From assembly GCA_003599275.1 (NCBI GenBank), contig QZJG01000057.1, forward strand, positions 6,556-70,555: a DNA stretch of 64,000 bases. Reading direction: 5' to 3'. Origin of the DNA: Nitrospiraceae bacterium. Its GTDB lineage: Bacteria; Nitrospirota; Thermodesulfovibrionia; UBA6902. Below are positions 3,728 through 62,441 of the stretch, piece by piece. Position numbers and translations under genes: made by a program. The notes below the pieces were generated by a model. The model had not been told where the DNA came from. It did not search any database and saw only the letters and a program-made list of their open reading frames with translations. Numbering within the stretch: position 1 is the first letter of the stretch; each line of letters starts with the position of its first letter.

Positions 3728-4798
3728 ATGAAAATGAAAAAGATATACGCACTCATACTGACACTCATATTGTTCAGCACAGGATATTCGGAGGCCGCGG
3801 TGGGCACGGTTTCCCCTCCATCGATTTCAGTAACGAAGGGCGTCCCGTCAACAGCGACTCTGGTCTACCGGCTGAGCGACGTTGCAGCTACCAATTGCGA
3901 ATACAGGTCGAGCAAGGGCAGCTTCATCGGGGGAACGAGTCCGCTGCTCGAAGAAAATCCGGTTGCGCTCACGGTTGTCATCCCTTCCACGATCAACAGC
4001 GGCTCGGCAACCGAAACGCTCAGGGTCTCTGCAGGCCTTATCGAGAAGGCACTGCGCCGGGATATCCGCACGTTTACGTACACGCGTGTATTTGAGTCTG
4101 TTACTTGTGATGATATTGCAGTAACGATGAATGTGACGATCACGGTCAAGGGTGAGGCATCCGCGGAATTCGGAATAACCCGCATGGAGCTCTACTTCGA
4201 AAACCGGAGGCCCGAAATCACAATCGGGAGAAACACGCCGGACCTGAAGGCCTTTGCCGACGTCCGTTTTGCAGGTTCGGGTCTTCTGGAGGGATACTGG
4301 GAGGTTGATGGAAGGCTCATCAGCCGTGAGTTCCGCCATCTCATATACGGACGGAGCGTTACGCTCCAGTCGCCGCAGGTCCCCGGCCTGCCGACTTTTG
4401 ATGAAGGCTCTCATGTCGTTCGTTTTGTGATTACCAAACCTGTTTCGGACATTGCCACGCCTTTCATCGTCTATTTCGTCACACCGAAGGAGATGAAGGT
4501 CCGGCAGGCCCCGCTTCTGCTTCTCGTTCCTGTCGAAGGGGGAAGCGCCAAAGCGGAGACGAAATTCTCCTGGGAGAAGCCTGAGGGAGCAAACATTTTC
4601 CTCATTTCCTTTTATGAGGACCGCGGGGGAACGCCTATCTTCTCGGCATATACGCGGGAGCCGTTCTATTCGCTTCCCGGACCTGTGGCAAGCAGGGTCT
4701 TTACGGCTGAAAGGCAGTATTTCTGGAAGGTGGTCGGATTCGATGCAGAGAATCAGGAGACGAGCGAGAGCGACAAGAGGGCTTTCATTATTAATTGA
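3728..4798 (+). CDS. Secreted hypothetical protein, third gene of the Fn3 cluster
   Basis: It has a signal peptide (KKIYALILTLILFSTGYSEA). The gene starts 4 nt after the previous stop and ends 3 nt before uvrB. I recognise no motifs. Confidence 0.6.
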   Translation: MKMKKIYALILTLILFSTGYSEAAVGTVSPPSISVTKGVPSTATLVYRLSDVAATNCEYRSSKGSFIGGTSPLLEENPVALTVVIPSTINSGSATETLRVSAGLIEKALRRDIRTFTYTRVFESVTCDDIAVTMNVTITVKGEASAEFGITRMELYFENRRPEITIGRNTPDLKAFADVRFAGSGLLEGYWEVDGRLISREFRHLIYGRSVTLQSPQVPGLPTFDEGSHVVRFVITKPVSDIATPFIVYFVTPKEMKVRQAPLLLLVPVEGGSAKAETKFSWEKPEGANIFLISFYEDRGGTPIFSAYTREPFYSLPGPVASRVFTAERQYFWKVVGFDAENQETSESDKRAFIIN

Positions 4799-4801
4799 AC
4801 A

Positions 4802-6811
4802 ATGAAAAGGGACAATAAGGCCACGGGCGCATTCAAATTGATCTCCGGCTTCAGGCCAACCGGCGATCAGCCGAAGGCCATTGAACGGCTTACGGAAGGT
4901 GTTCTAAATAAAACGGGGCATCAGGTCCTCTTGGGCGTTACCGGCTCCGGCAAGACCTTTACCATTGCCAATGTCATAGCGAATATAAATAAACCGGCGC
5001 TTGTCATTGCGCACAACAAGACCCTTGCGGCACAATTATACGGCGAATTCAAGTCCTTCTTCCCTGAGAACGCGGTGGAATATTTTGTGAGTTTCTACGA
5101 CTACTATCAGCCTGAAGCGTACCTCCCGTCCACCGACACGTATATTGAAAAAGACTCCATGATAAACGAAGACATTGACAGGCTGAGGCACGCGGCGACA
5201 CGCTCTGTGCTTGAAAGAAACGATACCGTTATCGTGGCCTCGGTCTCGTGCATCTACGGCATCGGATCGCCTGAGGATTATTCAGACATGCATCTGAGTA
5301 TAGAGAAAGGGATGCGGACGGAGAGGGACGCATTCCTGAGAAAGCTTGTTGATATGCTTTATGAGCGCACGGAAGACTTCAAAAGGGGCACGTTCAGGGT
5401 GAGGGGCGATATCGTGGAGATATTCCCTTCTTTTTCAGGCGACAACGCGATAAGGGTTGAATTCTTCGGAGATGACATAGACGGGCTGTATGAGTTTGAT
5501 TCTCTCTCCGGCAAGGTAATCAGGCGTATTGAAAAAATCGATCTTTATCCCAACAGCCACTGGATCACGCCGAGGCCGAGGATCGAAAGGGCGCTCTCTA
5601 CTATTAATGAAGAGCTCGGAGAGAGGTTGAATTTTTTCCTGAGGCAGGGCAGGGAGCTTGAGGCAAAGAGACTTGAGCAGAGGACGCGCTTCGATATGGA
5701 GATGCTCAAAGAATTCGGATACTGCCACGGTATAGAAAACTACTCGAGGCATTTAAACGGCAGGATGCCGGGAGAGCCGCCGTACTGCCTCATAGATTAT
5801 TTCCCGGAGGATTTTCTCGTTATCATCGACGAGTCCCACGCAACGGTCCCGCAGATAGGGGGCATGTACGAGGGAGACCGGTCGAGAAAACAGACGCTCA
5901 TTGACTTCGGCTTCAGGCTTCCGTCCGCGCTCGATAACCGCCCGCTCAGGTTTAATGAGTTTGAGCACAGGGTGCGGGAGGCGATTTATGTCTCCGCGAC
6001 ACCCTCGGAATATGAGCTTAACAAATCCGGCCGCCGCATTGTGGAGCAGATTGTCCGGCCCACGGGGCTGATGGACCCGGTTATTGAAGTGCGGCCTGTT
6101 GCCGGGCAGCTTGATGATCTCCTCGGAGAGATCAGGAAGAGGGCAGAAGGCGGGGAAAGGGTGCTGGTTACGACCCTTACAAAAAAAATGGCGGAGGATA
6201 TCACGGAGTACTATACGGAATTGGGGACCAGGGCACGGTATCTGCACTCCGATATCGATACCCTTGAGAGGATCGAGATCCTGCGCGACCTGAGACTCGG
6301 CAAATTCGACGCGCTCATCGGAGTGAACCTGTTGAGGGAAGGGCTGGACCTTCCGGAGGTGTCGCTTGTTGCGATATTCGATGCCGACAAAGAGGGCTTC
6401 CTGCGATCGGGCCGCTCCCTTATCCAGACCTCGGGAAGGGCCGCGAGGAATGTGAACGGCATTGTCATATTCTATGCCGACAAAATAACCGGCTCGATGA
6501 AGACCGCCATCGATGAGACAACCAGGAGACGGAAGATCCAGGAAGCTTACAATAAAAAGCACAAGATAACCCCGACATCGATCAAAAAGGAGATAACGAA
6601 TATCCTCAGCTCCATTTATGAAGCGGACTACTGGACGGTGCAGGCGGTGGCTGAGGAAAAGGTCGAATACGGCGACGAGTCCGTAATCATAAAACTCGAA
6701 GAGGAAATGAAAGAAGCCGCCAAGCGACTCGATTTTGAAAAGGCCGCGGAGATAAGAGACCGCATCAGGGCGATAAAGAATAAACAGATCGAGGTAGGGA
6801 TCAAGGTGTAG
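4802..6811 (+). CDS. uvrB: Excinuclease ABC subunit B
   Basis: Walker [10 protein letters not shown] is present, along with the YDYYQPEAY beta-hairpin region and helicase motifs. The C-terminal UVR domain is present ([24 protein letters not shown]). Confidence 0.97.
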
Positions 6812-29205: not shown

Positions 29206-29565
29206 GTCATTGCGAGGGGACGAAGTCACCGAAGCAATCTCATAAGGTTTCATACAAATCATTCCACTCAGGATTTAATTTATTAATTATTGCAATCTTT
29301 TTAGCCCTTGATCCAGCCTTGATTTGTTTTTCTCTAACAATAGCATTCTCAACATCTCTACAAATTTCATAGAAAACCAATTTATTAATATTGTATCTTT
29401 TGGTAAAGCCTTCAACTATTTTTTCTTTATGCTCACAAGCCCTTCTCTTTAAGTCGTTGGTTATGCCGGTGTATATTACGTTATGATCCTTATTTGTCAT
29501 TAAATAAATATAGTATTGTTTTTCTCTCATTGAGATTGCTTCGTCGCTTCGCTCCTCGCAATGAC
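29206..29565. mobile_element. GTCATTGCGAG-family element (copy 6) with a GIY-YIG nuclease ORF between its arms
   Basis: The left arm is GTCATTGCGAGGGGACGAAGTCACCGAAGCAATCTCA (29206-29242). The right arm is TGAGATTGCTTCGTCGCTTCGCTCCTCGCAATGAC (29531-29565). The outer 12 nt and inner 12 nt are perfectly complementary. The ORF fills the loop. Confidence 0.7.
29240..29530 (-). CDS. Small stand-alone GIY-YIG (URI-domain) nuclease family protein
   Basis: The sequence is KQYYIYLMTNKDHNVIYTGITNDLKRRACEHK...GFTKRYNINKLVFYE...A..REKQIK......K...I...NPEW.DL. This is the GIY...YIG pattern with conserved R and E residues and resembles COG2827/UPF0213. Confidence 0.85.
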   Translation of the reverse strand: MREKQYYIYLMTNKDHNVIYTGITNDLKRRACEHKEKIVEGFTKRYNINKLVFYEICRDVENAIVREKQIKAGSRAKKIAIINKLNPEWNDLYETL

Positions 29566-30170: not shown

Positions 30171-30233
30171 AGGCACAAAGATTCAAAGGCACAGAGGCAC
30201 TAATTCCTTTTTTCACTCTGTGCCTTTGTGCCT
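30171..30233. repeat. Hairpin repeat, CACAGAG family (short form), between ruvC and ruvA
   Basis: The sequence is AGGCACAAAGATTCAAAGGCACAGAGGCAC...CACTCTGTGCCTTTGTGCCT. Confidence 0.8.
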
Positions 30234-31654: not shown

Positions 31655-31866
31655 ATTTATAGTTCAGCCTAAAAATTATAAGTAATGGATTTACTGAAAG
31701 GCAATAGCGAGAAGAAATTTAGTTGGGATTTGTTCATTTATTTTAATGATGATGCGTATGTTTTTTTTCTGAAAGGTAAAAGTACAAGCCGGCTCCAAGC
31801 CCTATTAAAACTACTGCTATAAAAACAATACGAGGCTCTTGCAAAAGTCCCTGCAAAATGACTTGT

Positions 31867-31950
31867 GTCGTCATACCCGTGAAAACGGGTATCCAGAAGG
31901 CTTTGTTTTTCAACGAAACTGGATTCCCGATTACTACCTCGGGAATGACG
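31867..31950. repeat. Palindromic repeat, GTCGTCATACCCG...GGGAATGACG family, copy 1
   Basis: The sequence is GTCGTCATACCCGTGAAAACGGGTATCCAG...CTGGATTCCCGATTACTACCTCGGGAATGACG. It is near-identical to the copy at 60763-60838. Confidence 0.85.
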
Positions 31951-32010
31951 AATAAATACTTTTGCAAGAGCCTCATATGAAAAGATATTTCTGTTAAAAA
32001 GATATTGCAA

Positions 32011-32089: not shown

Positions 32090-33508
32090 TTAGAACTTTA
32101 AGAGCAGGCCGTGTCTGACGCCATAAGCATTGTCAGGATCTTCGTTGCCTGCAGTTACATTCTTGTAGAAATCGCCGGCGAAGAGATAACCGCCCTCAAC
32201 ATAATAGGCCAGATTGGTGTCGATCTGGTACTCGACTTTTCCGTCAAGCTCGAAACCTATTGCCTTTGAATCCAGGTCATTTGTATCGCTTACTTTCTTG
32301 GAGGCCCTGAGATAGTAGGCATCTGCCGAAACCTTCAGGTCTGTTGCCGGCTTTGCAGTGACTCCGGCATTGATGTACCAGGTGTTGTTAAGACCGGTGC
32401 CTGTTGCTCCCGCATATGCGCCGCCTGTAAGCGATGTCTGGGCTGCTGTAGGCGCCCTGTATTCATAAATATATGTGTAGCGCTGGTCCGCTCCGAGAGA
32501 GGTCACAAAACCTTCGTATTTTTCTCCGGTGTCGGTCTTGTCGCCGCTTCCGTATGCAACGTTGCCTCTTACTGTTACAGGGCCGGCATCAGCTTCTACG
32601 CCTGCCATAACTGCCAGGCCTCTGAATTTCAGGTCGTCTCCATTGCTTGCGCCACTTTTCTGTTTACCTGTCTGAAGCTCTACATCTCCTTTTACCCTTA
32701 CGACCTTCAGGTCTGCATTGGCCCTTAAGCCTAAGTTGTAAAGGTTGAGCTCCTTATGAGCGGTACCATTGTCATCTACCCAAGTCAGGTCGCCGCTTAC
32801 GCTGATGTCGCCAATAGCCGATTCGGCAGCGAGAACAAAGGCATTCTGATCATCGTGTATGACGTTGCTGTTTTCAGTGAGTTTTAAGGCCGAAAGAGAT
32901 ATCTCGGTCTTGTCGGCAGGCGATATCCAGAACACGATCGCATCATCGCCGAATTTGGAATGGTCATAGAACATGTTGTTGCCGAGAGCCATCAGCATAT
33001 GGCCTGCCTTGATCCCGGAAAGTACGCCGAGGCCTTTGCCCTGATGTGCGATGTATAACTGACGAACTCGCAGATCGCCGCGTTTGCTGTTGCTTTCCTG
33101 ATAAATCCCGGTTGCCCCTTCGGTAGTGGATCCCCAAGCTGGTCCGTCAGCAGTGTCCCCAGCAGTAGTGTCAAGATCGTTGCCGTTTTCAAGCTCTACA
33201 AAGCCCATTGTGTTCGGAGACACTGTTGCTTTGAGGTTTAATCTTACCCTCTGGTCATAAAATGCCTGACGGTCCCTTGGATTCGCAGCGCCGTCTGTAC
33301 CATCTTCGTCTGTATTTTCGAAGTCTGTGGTGTTATTTCTGAATTCACCTCTTACTCTCAACTCTCCGCCGAGAGTTATCTGTGCTTTAGCCGCCTTCAC
33401 TACTGAAGGGGTATATTCTGTTGCTGTTACCTGATGAAGTGCGAAGGCTGCGGTTGTAAAAACCATCAGGACAATCACACTCAGTAATGCTATTAACGAC
33501 TTTTTCAT
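32090..33508 (-). CDS. Major outer-membrane beta-barrel porin
   Basis: It has a signal peptide (ALLSVIVLMVFTTAAFA), amphipathic beta-strand periodicity, Asp/Gly/Thr-rich loops, and a terminal ...GLLLKF (aromatic C-terminus). It has a strong Shine-Dalgarno sequence (AAAGGAGGAATTGA), its own promoter and its own terminator. Confidence 0.75.
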   Translation of the reverse strand: MKKSLIALLSVIVLMVFTTAAFALHQVTATEYTPSVVKAAKAQITLGGELRVRGEFRNNTTDFENTDEDGTDGAANPRDRQAFYDQRVRLNLKATVSPNTMGFVELENGNDLDTTAGDTADGPAWGSTTEGATGIYQESNSKRGDLRVRQLYIAHQGKGLGVLSGIKAGHMLMALGNNMFYDHSKFGDDAIVFWISPADKTEISLSALKLTENSNVIHDDQNAFVLAAESAIGDISVSGDLTWVDDNGTAHKELNLYNLGLRANADLKVVRVKGDVELQTGKQKSGASNGDDLKFRGLAVMAGVEADAGPVTVRGNVAYGSGDKTDTGEKYEGFVTSLGADQRYTYIYEYRAPTAAQTSLTGGAYAGATGTGLNNTWYINAGVTAKPATDLKVSADAYYLRASKKVSDTNDLDSKAIGFELDGKVEYQIDTNLAYYVEGGYLFAGDFYKNVTAGNEDPDNAYGVRHGLLLKF

Positions 33509-33878: not shown

Positions 33879-34020
33879 TACCCCCTGTCTTTAATTGTGG
33901 TGTTAGTGCAATTGGCATGATGTAAAAAGGACACGGAAAGGCTGGAAAACCACAGTATCCACAGATTTCACAGATGTCACAGATTTTTTTAATTTTATCT
34001 AAATTGAGTGATTTCTGGTT

Positions 34021-34054
34021 GTCATTGCGAGCAGCAGAGATTCCTCGCAATGAC
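34021..34054. repeat. Palindromic repeat, GTCATTGCGAG family, copy 8 (minimal 34-bp form)
   Basis: The sequence is GTCATTGCGAG-cagcagagattc-CTCGCAATGAC, with perfect 11-bp arms. Confidence 0.9.
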
Positions 34055-34177
34055 AGAGAGAATAAGTGGTTATGTGTAACATAGCTCAATTTAACTTTTA
34101 TTTTCTTTAATCTGTGTAATCTGCGGATTAATCATTTTTTCTCCATGCCTCTGTGTCTCTGTGTTTTATTTTCCATT

Positions 34178-34699
34178 TTATATTTTTTCAACGTCTGAAG
34201 CATTGATCGTCAGCGCTACTCCCTGACGCAGGACGTCCACGGAAAGCACGAGGATGTGTTTGTCGAGCTTCTCCACGAGAATTCCCTCTACGCCGCTTAG
34301 AGGACCTTTGACGATTCTCACCCTTTGTCCTTCATTTAAATATGGATAGGGATCGAGAAGCTCTTTGTTTTCCATAAGACGCTGCAAGGACACTATCTGT
34401 TCGTCCGGTATCGGTGTAGGCTCTCCCGGTATTGTGCATAACATCCTGACTACGCCTTTAACTTTCAGGACGCTTAACAGGCTGTTGGAATCTTTTGCGA
34501 TATGCACAAAGATATAACCCGGGAACAGAGGGAAGGCGACCAGTTTTTTCCTGTCCTTCCATTTCCTGAGCCGTTCAACTGCGGGGAGAAAGGCCTCCAC
34601 GCCTTTAAGTTTCAGTCTGTCATGGACCTGAAATTCATGGCGCGAGCGGGTGTTTACGGCGTACCAGTTTGTCTGTAACTTATCGTTTGTCGATTGCAT
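34178..34699 (-). CDS. NusG paralogue (UpxY/LoaP-like specialised antiterminator family)
   Basis: The NGN domain is present (WYAVNTRSRHEFQV...LFPGYIFV), as is the KOW motif (GQRVRIVKGPLSGVEGILVE). The protein is 173 aa and is not next to secE or rplK. Confidence 0.8.
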   Translation of the reverse strand: MQSTNDKLQTNWYAVNTRSRHEFQVHDRLKLKGVEAFLPAVERLRKWKDRKKLVAFPLFPGYIFVHIAKDSNSLLSVLKVKGVVRMLCTIPGEPTPIPDEQIVSLQRLMENKELLDPYPYLNEGQRVRIVKGPLSGVEGILVEKLDKHILVLSVDVLRQGVALTINASDVEKI

Positions 34700-34713: not shown

Positions 34714-34860
34714 AACCACTGAGGCACAGAGTCACAGAGATTAGGATTAAGAGTCAAGAATATTGGATTTAAATAGTCTGTAAATATCTTTAAACATAAT
34801 TCATGACTCAAAACTCTATACTCTTTATTGTCTTCCTCCGTACCCCTGTGTCTCTGTGTT
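34714..34860. repeat. CACAGAG-family element, long form, copy A (empty site)
   Basis: The sequence is AACCACTGAGGCACAGAGTCACAGAG...TAGTCTGTAAATATCTTTAAAC...CCCCTGTGTCTCTGTGTT. Apart from a 144-bp insertion, it is collinear with copy B. Confidence 0.85.
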
Positions 34861-34873
34861 TTAAAATTTTCTT

Positions 34874-35026
34874 TTACGCATTCGCCTGCGGAGCTTGCGC
34901 GGCCTCTTCGCCTTTGTCTTTGTAAATCTCCGTAATGCTCGTGACTTTTATCCCGGCGGCCTGTAATGCCTTTTGAATGTCTACAGCCTTTGCATCCTGG
35001 ACCTTAAGCATATAATTGATATCCAT
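34874..35026 (-). CDS. 50-aa hypothetical protein (MDINYMLKVQDAKAVDIQKALQAAGIKVTSITEIYKDKGEEAAQAPQANA), not in the ORF track
   Basis: The Shine-Dalgarno sequence is strong (AAAGGGAGGTCAT-ATG). The gene is flanked by repeat copies A and B. I recognise no family. Confidence 0.4.
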   Translation of the reverse strand: MDINYMLKVQDAKAVDIQKALQAAGIKVTSITEIYKDKGEEAAQAPQANA

Positions 35027-35068
35027 ATGACCTCCCTTTTAATAAATTCGAATAATTTTTTTGTGTAT

Positions 35069-35344
35069 TACCACAGAGGCACAGAGATTTAGAATTAAGA
35101 GTCAAGCATATTGGATTTAAATAGTCTGTAATTCCACTTTGCAATCAAGATGACGCCTTTGTTATTCCGGTCAGAGATTCGTACCGAACTTGTCCGGAAT
35201 CTTTCTTTGTTTTCAGAAGGATTCCCGACGCGCTCCGCTTGCGGGAATGACAACTTAAACACTTAATGGAATAAGATCTTTAAACATATCTCATAACTCT
35301 ATACTCTTTATTGTCTTCCTCCGTGCCTCTGTGTCTCAGTGGTT
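35069..35344. repeat. CACAGAG-family element, long form, copy B (carries a nested insertion)
   Basis: The sequence is TACCACAGAGGCACAGAG...TAGTCTGTAA[144 bp]ATCTTTAAAC...CCGTGCCTCTGTGTCTCAGTGGTT. Confidence 0.85.
35132..35275. mobile_element. 144-bp nested insertion in copy B, containing a GTTATTCCGG...GCGGGAATGAC palindromic element (35161-35251)
   Basis: The segment is absent from the otherwise collinear copy A. In copy A, TCTGTAA is followed after 2 nt by ATCTTTAAAC. Confidence 0.7.
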
Positions 35345-35359
35345 TTAATTATAACCCAA

Positions 35360-36178
35360 TCATTTTGATTCGGCAATTAATTCCGAGACCGGCACTACCG
35401 CAACTTCTTTATTGTCTTTCAGCTTCTTCCGTAAGAACTGAAGAGTATTTTTTCTTGGATGGGCCAACAGAATCGCATGACCTTTTTCATTTGCAATTTG
35501 AAGAAGCCTCTTCCACTCCGCCTCTATTGCCACCAAGTCGTCTTTGTCATCAAGAAATACGTCGCGGCTCAACGCCCTTACACCCAGCGTCTTTGCCGAC
35601 TTTTCGCCGACTGATTTTGACGATGTACGGCTGTCGAGAAAGAAAAGTTTCCTTTTTTTCAATTCTGAAATCAGTACGCGCATAGCCCTTTCATCCTGAG
35701 TAAAGGCGGAACCCATATGATTACTGATTCCCTGAGCGTGTGGCACTGTGCGAAGGTCGGCATCAAGCGTATCGAGAATTTCCTCATCGGTCATCCACGT
35801 ATATAATCCGCCCTTTCCCGGCCCATGGGCCTTTTCAGCCTCCATCGGGATATGGGCCATAATGTCATGCCCAAGCCTGTGACCTTCTCCCGCTATCCAT
35901 GAACTGTAAGGCTGTTGGGGAAGGATGGAGAGGACCAGTGGCGCTTTTATGTCAAGGACCGCAGTTGCGGTTGTTTTGTTTGGTCCCAGGTCGTCTATTA
36001 TAATTGCCACTGTCGGTTTTGAAGGAGAAGCTTTGGGTTTTTCTACGGGTGTCGTTGTCCGTGAGGGCGCCTTCGGCTTTTTTTCTTTCCCGAATTCTTC
36101 GTACAGGGAAAAGAGCGCGATGATGATAAAAAAAAGGATGAGAATGTAGTGGTGCTTTTTGTTTTTTGACTTTGCCAA
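35360..36178 (-). CDS. Divergent polysaccharide deacetylase family protein (YibQ-like)
   Basis: An N-terminal TM anchor is followed by VAIIIDDLG and HMP.E... and GISNHMGS motifs. Confidence 0.8.
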   Translation of the reverse strand: MAKSKNKKHHYILILFFIIIALFSLYEEFGKEKKPKAPSRTTTPVEKPKASPSKPTVAIIIDDLGPNKTTATAVLDIKAPLVLSILPQQPYSSWIAGEGHRLGHDIMAHIPMEAEKAHGPGKGGLYTWMTDEEILDTLDADLRTVPHAQGISNHMGSAFTQDERAMRVLISELKKRKLFFLDSRTSSKSVGEKSAKTLGVRALSRDVFLDDKDDLVAIEAEWKRLLQIANEKGHAILLAHPRKNTLQFLRKKLKDNKEVAVVPVSELIAESK

Positions 36179-36214
36179 GTTGTTTAACGTGTATAATTAA
36201 AACTTTGTTTTGAT

Positions 36215-36272
36215 GTCATTCCGGCTTGTCCGGAATCCTTATAAAAGAAGATTCCGGACAAGCCGGAATGAC
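36215..36272. repeat. Palindromic repeat, GTCATTCCGGC family (perfect 23-nt arms)
   Basis: The sequence is GTCATTCCGGCTTGTCCGGAATC-cttataaaagaa-GATTCCGGACAAGCCGGAATGAC. Confidence 0.9.
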
Positions 36273-36331
36273 GTAACCAGCGTTCCTTATTAATCCTGTC
36301 TTTTCTGCGTTCATCCGCATCCAATTCATTT

Positions 36332-45900: not shown

Positions 45901-46046
45901 GTTAACCACCGGAGACACGGAGGCACCGAGTTGAAAAATAGAAGCAAAAGACCAAAACTTATCCTTCACCAACATGGGTGACACAACATTTTCCCGGAAT
46001 CCCTTTGTTTTCTCTGTGGCTCTGCGGTAAATGAACGTGCTTTTCA
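45901..46046. repeat. ~146-bp element, copy C (GTTAACCACCGGAGACACGGAGGCACCGAG...CTCTGTGGCTCTGCGGTAAATGAACGTGCTTTTCAG)
   Basis: By eye it is about 85% identical to copy D, which lies 433 bp downstream in the same orientation. Confidence 0.85.
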
Positions 46047-46333: not shown

Positions 46334-46478
46334 GTTAACCACGGAGATGCTGAGGCGCCGAGTTGAAAATAGTAAAAGACCAAAACTTATCCTTCGCCAC
46401 GGGGGGGTGACACAGCACTTTCCAGTACCCCCTTGTTTTCTCCGTGTCTCTGTGGTAAATGAATTGCCGTTTTTAGGT
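46334..46478. repeat. ~145-bp element, copy D, preceded by a CACAGAT-family arm (46278-46315)
   Basis: The sequence is GTTAACCACGGAGATGCTGAGGCGCCGAG...CTCCGTGTCTCTGTGGTAAATGAATTGCCGTTTTTAGGT. The right end also matches 24848-24897. Confidence 0.85.
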
Positions 46479-62378: not shown

Positions 62379-62441
62379 ACCACTGAGGCACTGAGACGCC
62401 GGGGTTTTATTTTTCCTCTGTGCCTCTGTGCCTCTGTGGTT
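62379..62441. repeat. Hairpin repeat, CACAGAG family, 14 nt downstream of the peptide ORF
   Basis: The sequence is ACCACTGAGGCACTGAGACGCCGGGGTTTTATTTTTCCTCTGTGCCTCTGTGCCTCTGTGGTT. Confidence 0.85.

Follow-up and report, generated by a model that had tools for sequence, protein, structure and literature searches.

A palindromic repeat nested within a palindromic repeat in the operon spacers of a Thermodesulfovibrionia bacterium

Introduction

Short intergenic repeats without a gene, with inverted ends and with the capacity to fold into hairpins are known from bacteria as MITEs (transposable elements of the miniature inverted-repeat type) and as repetitive extragenic palindromic (REP) or REPIN-type repeats, the Correia elements being one example (PMC3116915). 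Two repeats that share all of these features, here termed copy A and copy B, are located in a 64-kb stretch of DNA (the window) from the Nitrospiraceae bacterium assembly GCA_003599275.1 (contig QZJG01000057.1), where they bracket a small open reading frame (ORF) in a conserved operon. Copy B contains an additional palindromic module at its centre, and the locus thus represents, in a Thermodesulfovibrionia genome rich in repeats, a MITE/REP-type palindromic repeat with another one nested in it. The likeness to MITE/REP repeats extends to the occurrence of subfamilies, to filled and empty sites among relatives and to internal-deletion derivatives of gene-bearing kin. Different from MITE/REP repeats, the ends of A and B are tandem octamer arrays instead of a unique inverted repeat, a target-site duplication is not established, the gene-bearing kin encode GxxExxY or four-helix-bundle proteins, and the A/B subfamily is seen just as a local pair.

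A second group of palindromic repeats is associated with single-strand nucleases. The Neisseria NTS, which has the structure CGTCATTCCCGCG-MAV-GCGGGAATCYRG, is bound by the single-strand nuclease SsnA (PMC11893778), and the wider SRM repeats are described by the pattern HGTCWYN(0-2)YYVSBRHN(0-5)WNVSBRGN(0-2)RNCYNB; their mobility was not demonstrated in that study (Chenal et al. 2025, PMC11893778). Different from the published SRM/NTS repeats, the module described here sits within another repeat. The joining of modules into mosaics is a feature that it shares with the dRS3/NIME repeats of Neisseria (PMC1797815).

Intervening-sequence (IVS)-type cassettes, known from 23S rRNA, encode four-helix-bundle (TIGR02436) or GxxExxY (TIGR04256) proteins. 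In relatives of the window, such genes are enclosed by long inverted arms that consist of the same octamers or of other heptamer arrays, but A and B have neither a gene nor a detectable remnant of one, and they are located in an operon spacer and not in rRNA. In cyanobacteria, Elhai and colleagues reportedly described in 2008 very small repeats that are inserted in MITE-like or tandem-heptamer hosts, and inferred their mobility from copies with and without the insert. The present locus belongs to another phylum, involves other sequences and contains a larger nested unit (142 bp) that is itself composite.

Sequences and comparisons

Copy A occupies positions 34714-34860 and copy B positions 35069-35344 of the window. 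Species-representative genomes were scanned with the window's NusG paralogue, which provided 67 loci of relatives (numbered with the prefix L), and about 650 kb of the relatives' DNA was compared with the window. The closest loci (about 38 of the 67) derive from Nitrospirota/Thermodesulfovibrionia metagenome-assembled genomes with at most 86% identity, mostly from groundwater and the deep subsurface. In the protein collection, homologues of the NusG paralogue from genomes other than that of the window reach 86% identity at best, and no strain-level relative is present there. The spacer between the deacetylase gene and the small gene is referred to as gap 1 and the spacer between the small gene and upxY as gap 2. 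Expected counts in the 33-mer/28-mer test are based on 100 dinucleotide-preserving shuffles of the window.

Two collinear copies of one palindromic element

The outer element and its parts are as follows:

34714-34860, no strand assigned: copy A, a 147-bp palindromic element without a gene, the 'empty' form
34717-34739 and 34836-34858: outer arms of copy A, tandem CACNGAG(N) octamers
34774-34788: apical loop of copy A, 15 nt, at the tip of the inner hairpin
35069-35344, no strand assigned: copy B, 276 nt, the same element with a module nested in the apical loop, the 'filled' form
35069-35130 and 35273-35344: the host parts of copy B

An earlier note on this DNA had described two collinear copies of about 150 bp as direct repeats and had suggested their pairwise alignment. 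A MAFFT alignment confirmed the match from end to end, and a repeat finder and BLAST agreed: A and B are collinear, in direct orientation and about 93% identical overall, with shared blocks of 60 nt on the left (93.3%) and 48 nt on the right (93.8%). For a central 33-mer (GAGTCAAGNATATTGGATTTAAATAGTCTGTAA) and also for a right-hand 28-mer (CTCTATACTCTTTATTGTCTTCCTCCGT), the window contains exactly two occurrences, with none expected. Besides the large block in B, the copies differ by two indels, as A contains an additional octamer in its left arm and an additional GACTCAA (7 nt) in its right interior.

Like MITEs, both copies have terminal inverted repeats, which consist of the tandem CACNGAG(N) octamers and the cap AACCAC...GTGGTT. 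The left arm of A (34714-34739) and the right arm of B (35319-35344) are 88% complementary over 26 nt, and the two arms of B itself 77% over 31 nt. Folded as single-stranded DNA, copy A forms an outer stem of octamer arms and an inner hairpin, GAGTCAAGAATATTGGATTTAAA / TTTAAACATAATTCATGACTC (z = -1.9), and copy B adopts the same fold around the additional block (z = -3.3). The inner hairpin is better preserved in A; that of B is eroded through the 7-nt loss. The elements are embedded in A/T-rich flanks, and most of their ends show motifs resembling TTAA. For the interiors of A and B, no match was detected in the relatives' DNA, where the arms alone match, and no Rfam family matches the elements. 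The idea that the interior is a relic of a GxxExxY or four-helix-bundle gene was rejected, as it gave no tblastn or hidden Markov model signal.

The additional block is a composite palindromic module

The block that distinguishes B from A has the following organisation:

35131-35272, no strand assigned: nested module, 142 bp, with ATTCCAC...ATGGAAT inverted ends (MAFFT register)
35161-35251, no strand assigned: module core, a two-hairpin compound of the GTCAT...ATGAC family
35164-35200: core hairpin 1, ATTCCGG..CCGGAAT
35221-35248: core hairpin 2, ATTCCCG..CGGGAAT

That copy B contains one single large additional block, as the earlier note had proposed, was found again; its limits are 35132-35275 (144 nt) in the register of that note and 35131-35272 (142 nt) in the MAFFT register, which costs just one flanking substitution. 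The block starts within the 15-nt apical loop of the inner hairpin, 4 nt off the geometric centre of the element. It is built in layers, with short inverted ends, weak inverted sub-terminal arms of 24 nt and then the 91-nt core. The assignment of the core to the GTCAT...ATGAC family holds as well, with the qualification that only its right end is ATGAC and its left end is the degenerate GTTAT.

Strict GTCAT...ATGAC palindromic modules occur 12 times in the window, compared with about 0.2 in shuffles. The two-hairpin layout of the core, in alignable form, recurs at window positions 31870-31949 and 36215-36272 and in standalone modules in gap 1 of L004 and L010. The core belongs to an independent repeat family with standalone copies. 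The module at 31870-31949 resides at the tip of a larger palindrome (31831-31975) with perfect 17-nt arms, GAGGCTCTTGCAAAAGT / ACTTTTGCAAGAGCCTC, and is thus another nested case. The region 36209-36276 produced sub-threshold Rfam matches to plant and animal microRNA precursors (mir-3167, 36.8 bits versus a gathering score of 86); these were dismissed as chance matches caused by the long GTCATTCCGG...CCGGAATGAC hairpin at 36215-36272.

Empty sites, variable spacers and the resident small gene

Both copies are located in the spacers of an operon, of which the window contains:

35360-36178, minus strand: divergent polysaccharide deacetylase (YibQ-like), PF04748 4.9e-69, upstream of copy B in the operon sense
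34874-35026, minus strand: small ORF, 50 amino acids, with a GGGAGG Shine-Dalgarno sequence 5 nt ahead of its ATG
34178-34699, minus strand: UpxY-family NusG paralogue, an NGN/KOW protein, PF02357 3e-21 and NF033644 132 bits (cut-off 100), directly downstream of copy A in the operon sense
32090-33508, minus strand: porin-like protein

The lengths of the two spacers vary widely:

Gap 1, deacetylase to small gene: 48-1247 nt in relatives; 333 nt in the window, corresponding to copy B (276) plus 57
Gap 2, small gene to upxY: -2 to 1131 nt in relatives; 174 nt in the window, corresponding to copy A (147) plus 27

The site of copy A comprises at most 4 nt in L004, L010 and L030 and 24-30 nt in L012, L014 and L016, and the site of copy B 48-78 nt in L034, L019 and L008. 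Empty sites, as known for MITEs, are therefore present in relatives at the positions of both copies, and these compact spacers indicate that the ancestral arrangement was compact and that both outer copies were added to it. In other relatives, longer gaps are occupied by octamer-armed hairpins with unrelated interiors (L001, L003, L005, L006, L068), by GTCAT modules (L002, L004, L010), by a GIY-YIG gene cassette (L002), by a four-helix-bundle gene cassette (L001) or by an ORF resembling EF-Tu domain 2 (L001, L068). At the very site of copy B, L006 has an arms-only hairpin in gap 1, which shares 37 nt at 94.6% with the window, including a 16-nt flank and the arm start TTATAATTAAAACCAC. The two spacers thus appear to be a recurrent landing zone, or hotspot, for hairpin elements in this clade.

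The ORF that A and B bracket had been proposed to have a strong Shine-Dalgarno sequence and to lie directly upstream of a NusG paralogue, and the GGGAGG motif and the NGN/KOW neighbour agree with this. Its conservation, which had been named as a point to check, is extensive: 141 homologues were detected with up to 92% identity, residues 1-38 are nearly invariant, and only the acidic tail is variable. Over the first 40 codons, 16 pairwise comparisons sum up to 267 synonymous versus 74 non-synonymous codon differences. The order of deacetylase, small gene, UpxY-type NusG paralogue and porin is kept in about 33 related species. Among the 38 closest loci, 33 have the small ORF upstream of the NusG paralogue, usually with the deacetylase and porin genes on the two sides, and the wider conserved order is ftsK-lolA-deacetylase-small-upxY-porin...yebC-ruvCAB-queH. 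In L004, L010 and L030, the small gene abuts or overlaps upxY. The homologues, the purifying selection and the synteny together show that the ORF is a real, resident gene and not cargo of the repeats. Neither Pfam nor NCBIfam contains a family that fits the protein, and AlphaFold models it with low confidence only (predicted local distance difference test score, 66). Unlike the product of the neighbouring gene, it has no 100% match in the protein collection, and the gene may therefore be unannotated in the source assembly.

Two further features of the spacers vary between loci. A conserved near-consensus promoter, TTGATT-17 nt-TAGAAT, is present in gap 1 of L002, L003, L004, L007 and L010, where it lies upstream of the start codon of the small gene at a distance of about 40-75 nt. 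It is not found in the window, L001, L005, L006 and L008; in the window and L006, a TATAAT abuts the octamer arm instead. Between the small gene and upxY, an ORF of 86 amino acids occurs in L001 (~5575-5835), L068 (9741-10001) and L069 (2095-2355), which weakly resembles EF-Tu domain 2 (PF03144; at 3.7e-4, the match does not reach the cut-off) and has, in L001, an octamer-armed element on each side.

A superfamily with conserved arms and variable interiors

Copies A and B are members of a superfamily of MITE/REP-like palindromes that occurs in Thermodesulfovibrionia and in which the ends are formed by 2-3 tandem CACNGAG(N) octamers and the cap (TT)AACCAC...GTGGTT(AA). With at most one mismatch, the arm motif GAGGCACAGAG is present 18 times in the window, compared with 0.7 expected. 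A scan of the window and the relatives for paired octamer arms produced 25 candidate pairs with interiors of 4-384 nt, at least one of which (L033 3429-3587) seems to have arisen by chance and not to be a genuine array. The contents of the arms are diverse:

Window 30190-30230, window 62381-62438 and L006 gap 1: arms-only hairpins
L004 6534-6955: gene-bearing element, GxxExxY protein, TIGR04256 1.5e-44
L015 2602-3031: gene-bearing element, four-helix-bundle protein, TIGR02436 2e-40
Window 33948-34166, no strand assigned: further array-armed element directly past the UpxY stop codon, with a central hairpin GTCATTGCGAG...CTCGCAATGAC at 34021-34054

The nusG-proximal arm of the window element at 33948-34166 is orthologous to an arm of the GxxExxY cassette in L004, and the interior is different again. 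The same octamer arm directly past the upxY stop codon is observed in four species (window 33948-34166, L004 6534-6955, L002 6533-6717 and L008 6534-6584), and the arms of the window element enclose CACAGATT arrays with the GTCATTGCGAG hairpin in the centre.

Members also differ in length. L002 6533-6717, at the orthologous site 17 nt past the upxY stop codon, derives from the L004 type by a clean internal deletion and lacks about 237 nt. A subfamily common to L001 and L006 comprises three copies, which differ in their centres by an addition of 26 nt and by a deletion of about 58 nt, the latter being seen in L006 gap 2 as compared with L006 8572-8695. Tip-centred length change in both directions is accordingly the normal mode of variation in the superfamily. 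A second octamer-armed subfamily, located in the recX-tsaD spacer, is represented only by a close direct pair (45905-46030 and 46340-46454), the members of which are 88% identical and about 310 nt apart. This pair suggests that new copies arise locally.

Array-flanked genes are a recurrent theme in the relatives, where each of several four-helix-bundle (TIGR02436, IVS-type) genes lies between tandem arrays of heptamers or octamers in inverted orientation:

L015 2602-3031, L008 10163-10510, L068 13880-14104 and L029 6530-6874: TIGR02436 array-flanked cassettes
L001 6664-6999, L001 gap 1 (4752-5262), L009 3795-4112, L019 6811-7131 and L033 6553-6666: further TIGR02436 array-flanked cassettes

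The sequence of the array unit varies from cassette to cassette, and several of the cassettes occupy the same two sites, past upxY and between yebC and ruvC. We know of no description of this array-flanked four-helix-bundle design.

Likeness of the module to NTS/SRM repeats

The core of the nested module resembles the NTS/SRM repeats (Chenal et al. 2025, PMC11893778) in having ATTCCCG...CGGGAAT and ATTCCGG...CCGGAAT stems and GTCAT/ATGAC ends, to be compared with the NTS CGTCATTCCCGCG..GCGGGAATC. It is hairpin 2 that corresponds to a GTCAT-led hairpin with an ATTCCCG/CGGGAAT-type stem; on the minus strand, positions 35221-35254 read TGTCATTCCCGC-AAGCGGAGCGC-GTCGGGAATC and contain ...GGGAATC. 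Different from the repeats covered by the published pattern, the module has loops of 11-23 nt, which are longer than the pattern allows, and one of its ends is GTTAT. The pattern fails on the insert because of these long loops, and no match was gained in the region when the loop limit was relaxed to 25. As the published pattern is not matched, the module is named NTS/SRM-like and is not presented as a tested member of the family.

SRM repeats are expected together with a repeat-flanked Ssn gene in the same genome, and the window contains such a gene:

29240-29530: small GIY-YIG (Ssn-type) gene, 96 amino acids, PF01541 at 2.6e-16

The sequences GTCATTGCGAGG.../...CCTCGCAATGAC adjoin it on the two sides at distance 0, and it lies 5.5 kb from the two copies.

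Origin of the two copies and of the nested module

The explanation that we favour, with a probability of about 0.58, is that A and B are paralogous, gene-less MITE/REP-like copies in hotspot spacers and that B gained the module. A and B would have separated first, as reflected by their divergence of about 6-7% and the two small indels, and the 142-bp palindromic module would then have entered B at the single-stranded loop that caps its inner hairpin. The module core would be related to the NTS/SRM hairpins that are recognised by the Ssn (GIY-YIG) single-strand nucleases, an Ssn-type gene being located nearby. We also infer movement via hairpin or single-stranded DNA intermediates and the origin of the second outer copy in a local jump. 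Effects on the operon, if there are any, are likely by-products, such as stable mRNA hairpins or an uncoupling of upxY and the small gene, whose tight junction in L004, L010 and L030 is lost in the window, and nothing indicates a dedicated host function of A and B. The two copies are ordinary selfish repeat DNA of a repeat-rich groundwater bacterium and do not constitute a new machine.

Several observations weigh against this explanation. A transposase with octamer arms, the autonomous partner with the same ends that a MITE would have, was not recognised in the ~650 kb of relatives' DNA, where the arms enclose GxxExxY or four-helix-bundle genes. There is no clear target-site duplication for A, B or the nested module. 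Only two copies of the A/B subfamily are seen, both within the window and as neighbours, and no exact match was obtained with a core 21-mer in 185,579 species genomes or with a 24-mer and a 21-mer in the metagenomes of the Joint Genome Institute (JGI), both taken without the window's own genome. This shows only that the A/B subfamily is not common to other sampled species, and its designation as a dispersed family is unproven. The arms are about 95% identical between species with heavily diverged synonymous sites, which hints that they are under selection, either for mobility or for the host, or have recently spread. The strict SRM pattern has three matches in the window (17966, 31869 and 60765) and none in the insert. 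Finally, tip-centred deletions are documented in the superfamily (L006 gap 2 and L002 6533-6717), and the polarity of the A/B difference is unproven. With regard to REP/REPIN repeats, a RAYT gene did not come to notice in the vicinity of the elements within the window, although no search was aimed at RAYT.

That the module was inserted into B and not lost from A is, in our view, probable. The block is delimited precisely by the inverted ends that belong to the module itself, ATTCCA...TGGAAT, the core stands alone at many other places, and A retains the better inner hairpin, that of B being eroded by the 7-nt loss. Moreover, a GTCAT hairpin is also central in other array-armed elements (window 33948-34133 with its centre at 34040 and the hairpin at 34021-34054, and L005 gap 1), and strongly complementary flanks are present in 5 of 22 GTCAT modules, compared with 1.1 expected (binomial p = 0.004); this subset is clear, although a global test for GTCAT modules at the tips of larger palindromes was not significant (Mann-Whitney p = 0.10). 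The reverse course, in which B is the ancestral longer form and A lost the central 142 bp by a deletion at the hairpin tip, through cruciform or hairpin processing or replication slippage, appears unlikely. It can refer to the real apex deletions of about 58 nt in L006 gap 2 and about 237 nt in L002 6533-6717, to the short A / TAA microhomology that flanks the block and to the symmetric position of the block, which fits a tip loss as well as an insertion. Even under a deletion, the module would remain a discrete unit; either way, the block behaves as such a unit and is found in one paralogue only. Of the claim in the earlier note that the nesting is direct evidence of movement, the discrete palindromic module, its independent family and the empty sites of the outer copies remain; the direction does not follow, as tip changes go both ways.

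With respect to the second outer copy, the local pairs A/B, which are 348 nt apart, and 45905-46030/46340-46454 suggest either local jumping or the copying of interiors between pre-existing arms. In the latter case, arms-only hairpins would have existed in both spacers, and the interior of about 95 bp would have been transferred by gene conversion or template switching, without transposition of the whole element. L006, which has short octamer-armed hairpins in both spacers (that in gap 1 sharing the 37 nt at 94.6% with B, including TTATAATTAAAACCAC), the arms-only hairpins at 30190-30230 and 62381-62438, the restriction of the second subfamily to one close direct pair and the similarity of arms between species in which the interiors differ wholly are in line with such a transfer. 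However, arms of about 25 nt are short for recombination, those of A and B differ by a whole octamer, and independent insertions with a preference for A/T-rich targets explain the same data, which makes this course improbable. Still less likely are cis-acting structures kept by the host, such as mRNA-stabilising or processing hairpins, a promoter, or a site at which the UpxY-type antiterminator is recruited or pausing takes place for it. Their recurrence beside the small gene and upxY (window, L001, L003, L005, L006, L068) and directly past the upxY stop codon (window, L002, L004, L008), the conservation of the arms far above neutral DNA and the promoter-like sequences TTGCCG-17-TATAAT abutting B and TTTACA-16-TATTCT inside A would agree with such a role. 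Several relatives nevertheless manage without elements and with a coupled small gene and upxY (L004, L010, L030), the same arms are also seen in spacers of genes without relation to the operon, ruvA-ruvC and recX-tsaD for example, promoter-like sites are as frequent as in shuffles (6 versus 5.7), terminator-like sites are not in excess either, and Rfam recognises no family in the elements. A composite transposon with A and B as its ends and the 50-amino-acid gene as cargo would account for direct repeats that bracket an ORF and for the outermost ends, A-left and B-right, being the best inverted pair (88% over 26 nt). This was rejected on synteny and is hardly conceivable, because the small gene is found at the same place between deacetylase and upxY in 33 relatives, mostly without elements and in some cases abutting upxY, and is under purifying selection along with its neighbours.

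A more far-reaching and rather doubtful proposition is that the array-armed hairpins of Thermodesulfovibrionia represent an undescribed class of long-lived 'Russian-doll' elements, in which the arms persist at the same operon spacers, the interiors turn over at the tip, and single-stranded DNA or hairpin machinery such as Ssn may drive the process. GTCAT/SRM modules, further array-armed hairpins and small genes (GxxExxY, four-helix-bundle, Ssn) would be inserted at the tip, and tip deletions would also occur. Copy B would then be an example with four layers, and its sibling, copy A, one with three.

Conclusions

The locus offers a tidy case of a palindromic repeat within a palindromic repeat in an uncultured Nitrospirota lineage. 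For annotation, recognising A and B avoids spurious ORF calls across the elements, helps to recognise the real 50-amino-acid gene and explains the variable spacer lengths of the operon. The wider pattern comprises conserved array arms with freely changing interiors, GTCAT/SRM modules in hairpin tips and IVS-type small genes in the same arms. If confirmed genome-wide, it would provide a concrete system for studying the movement and the landing sites of hairpin repeats that are linked to Ssn-type nucleases.

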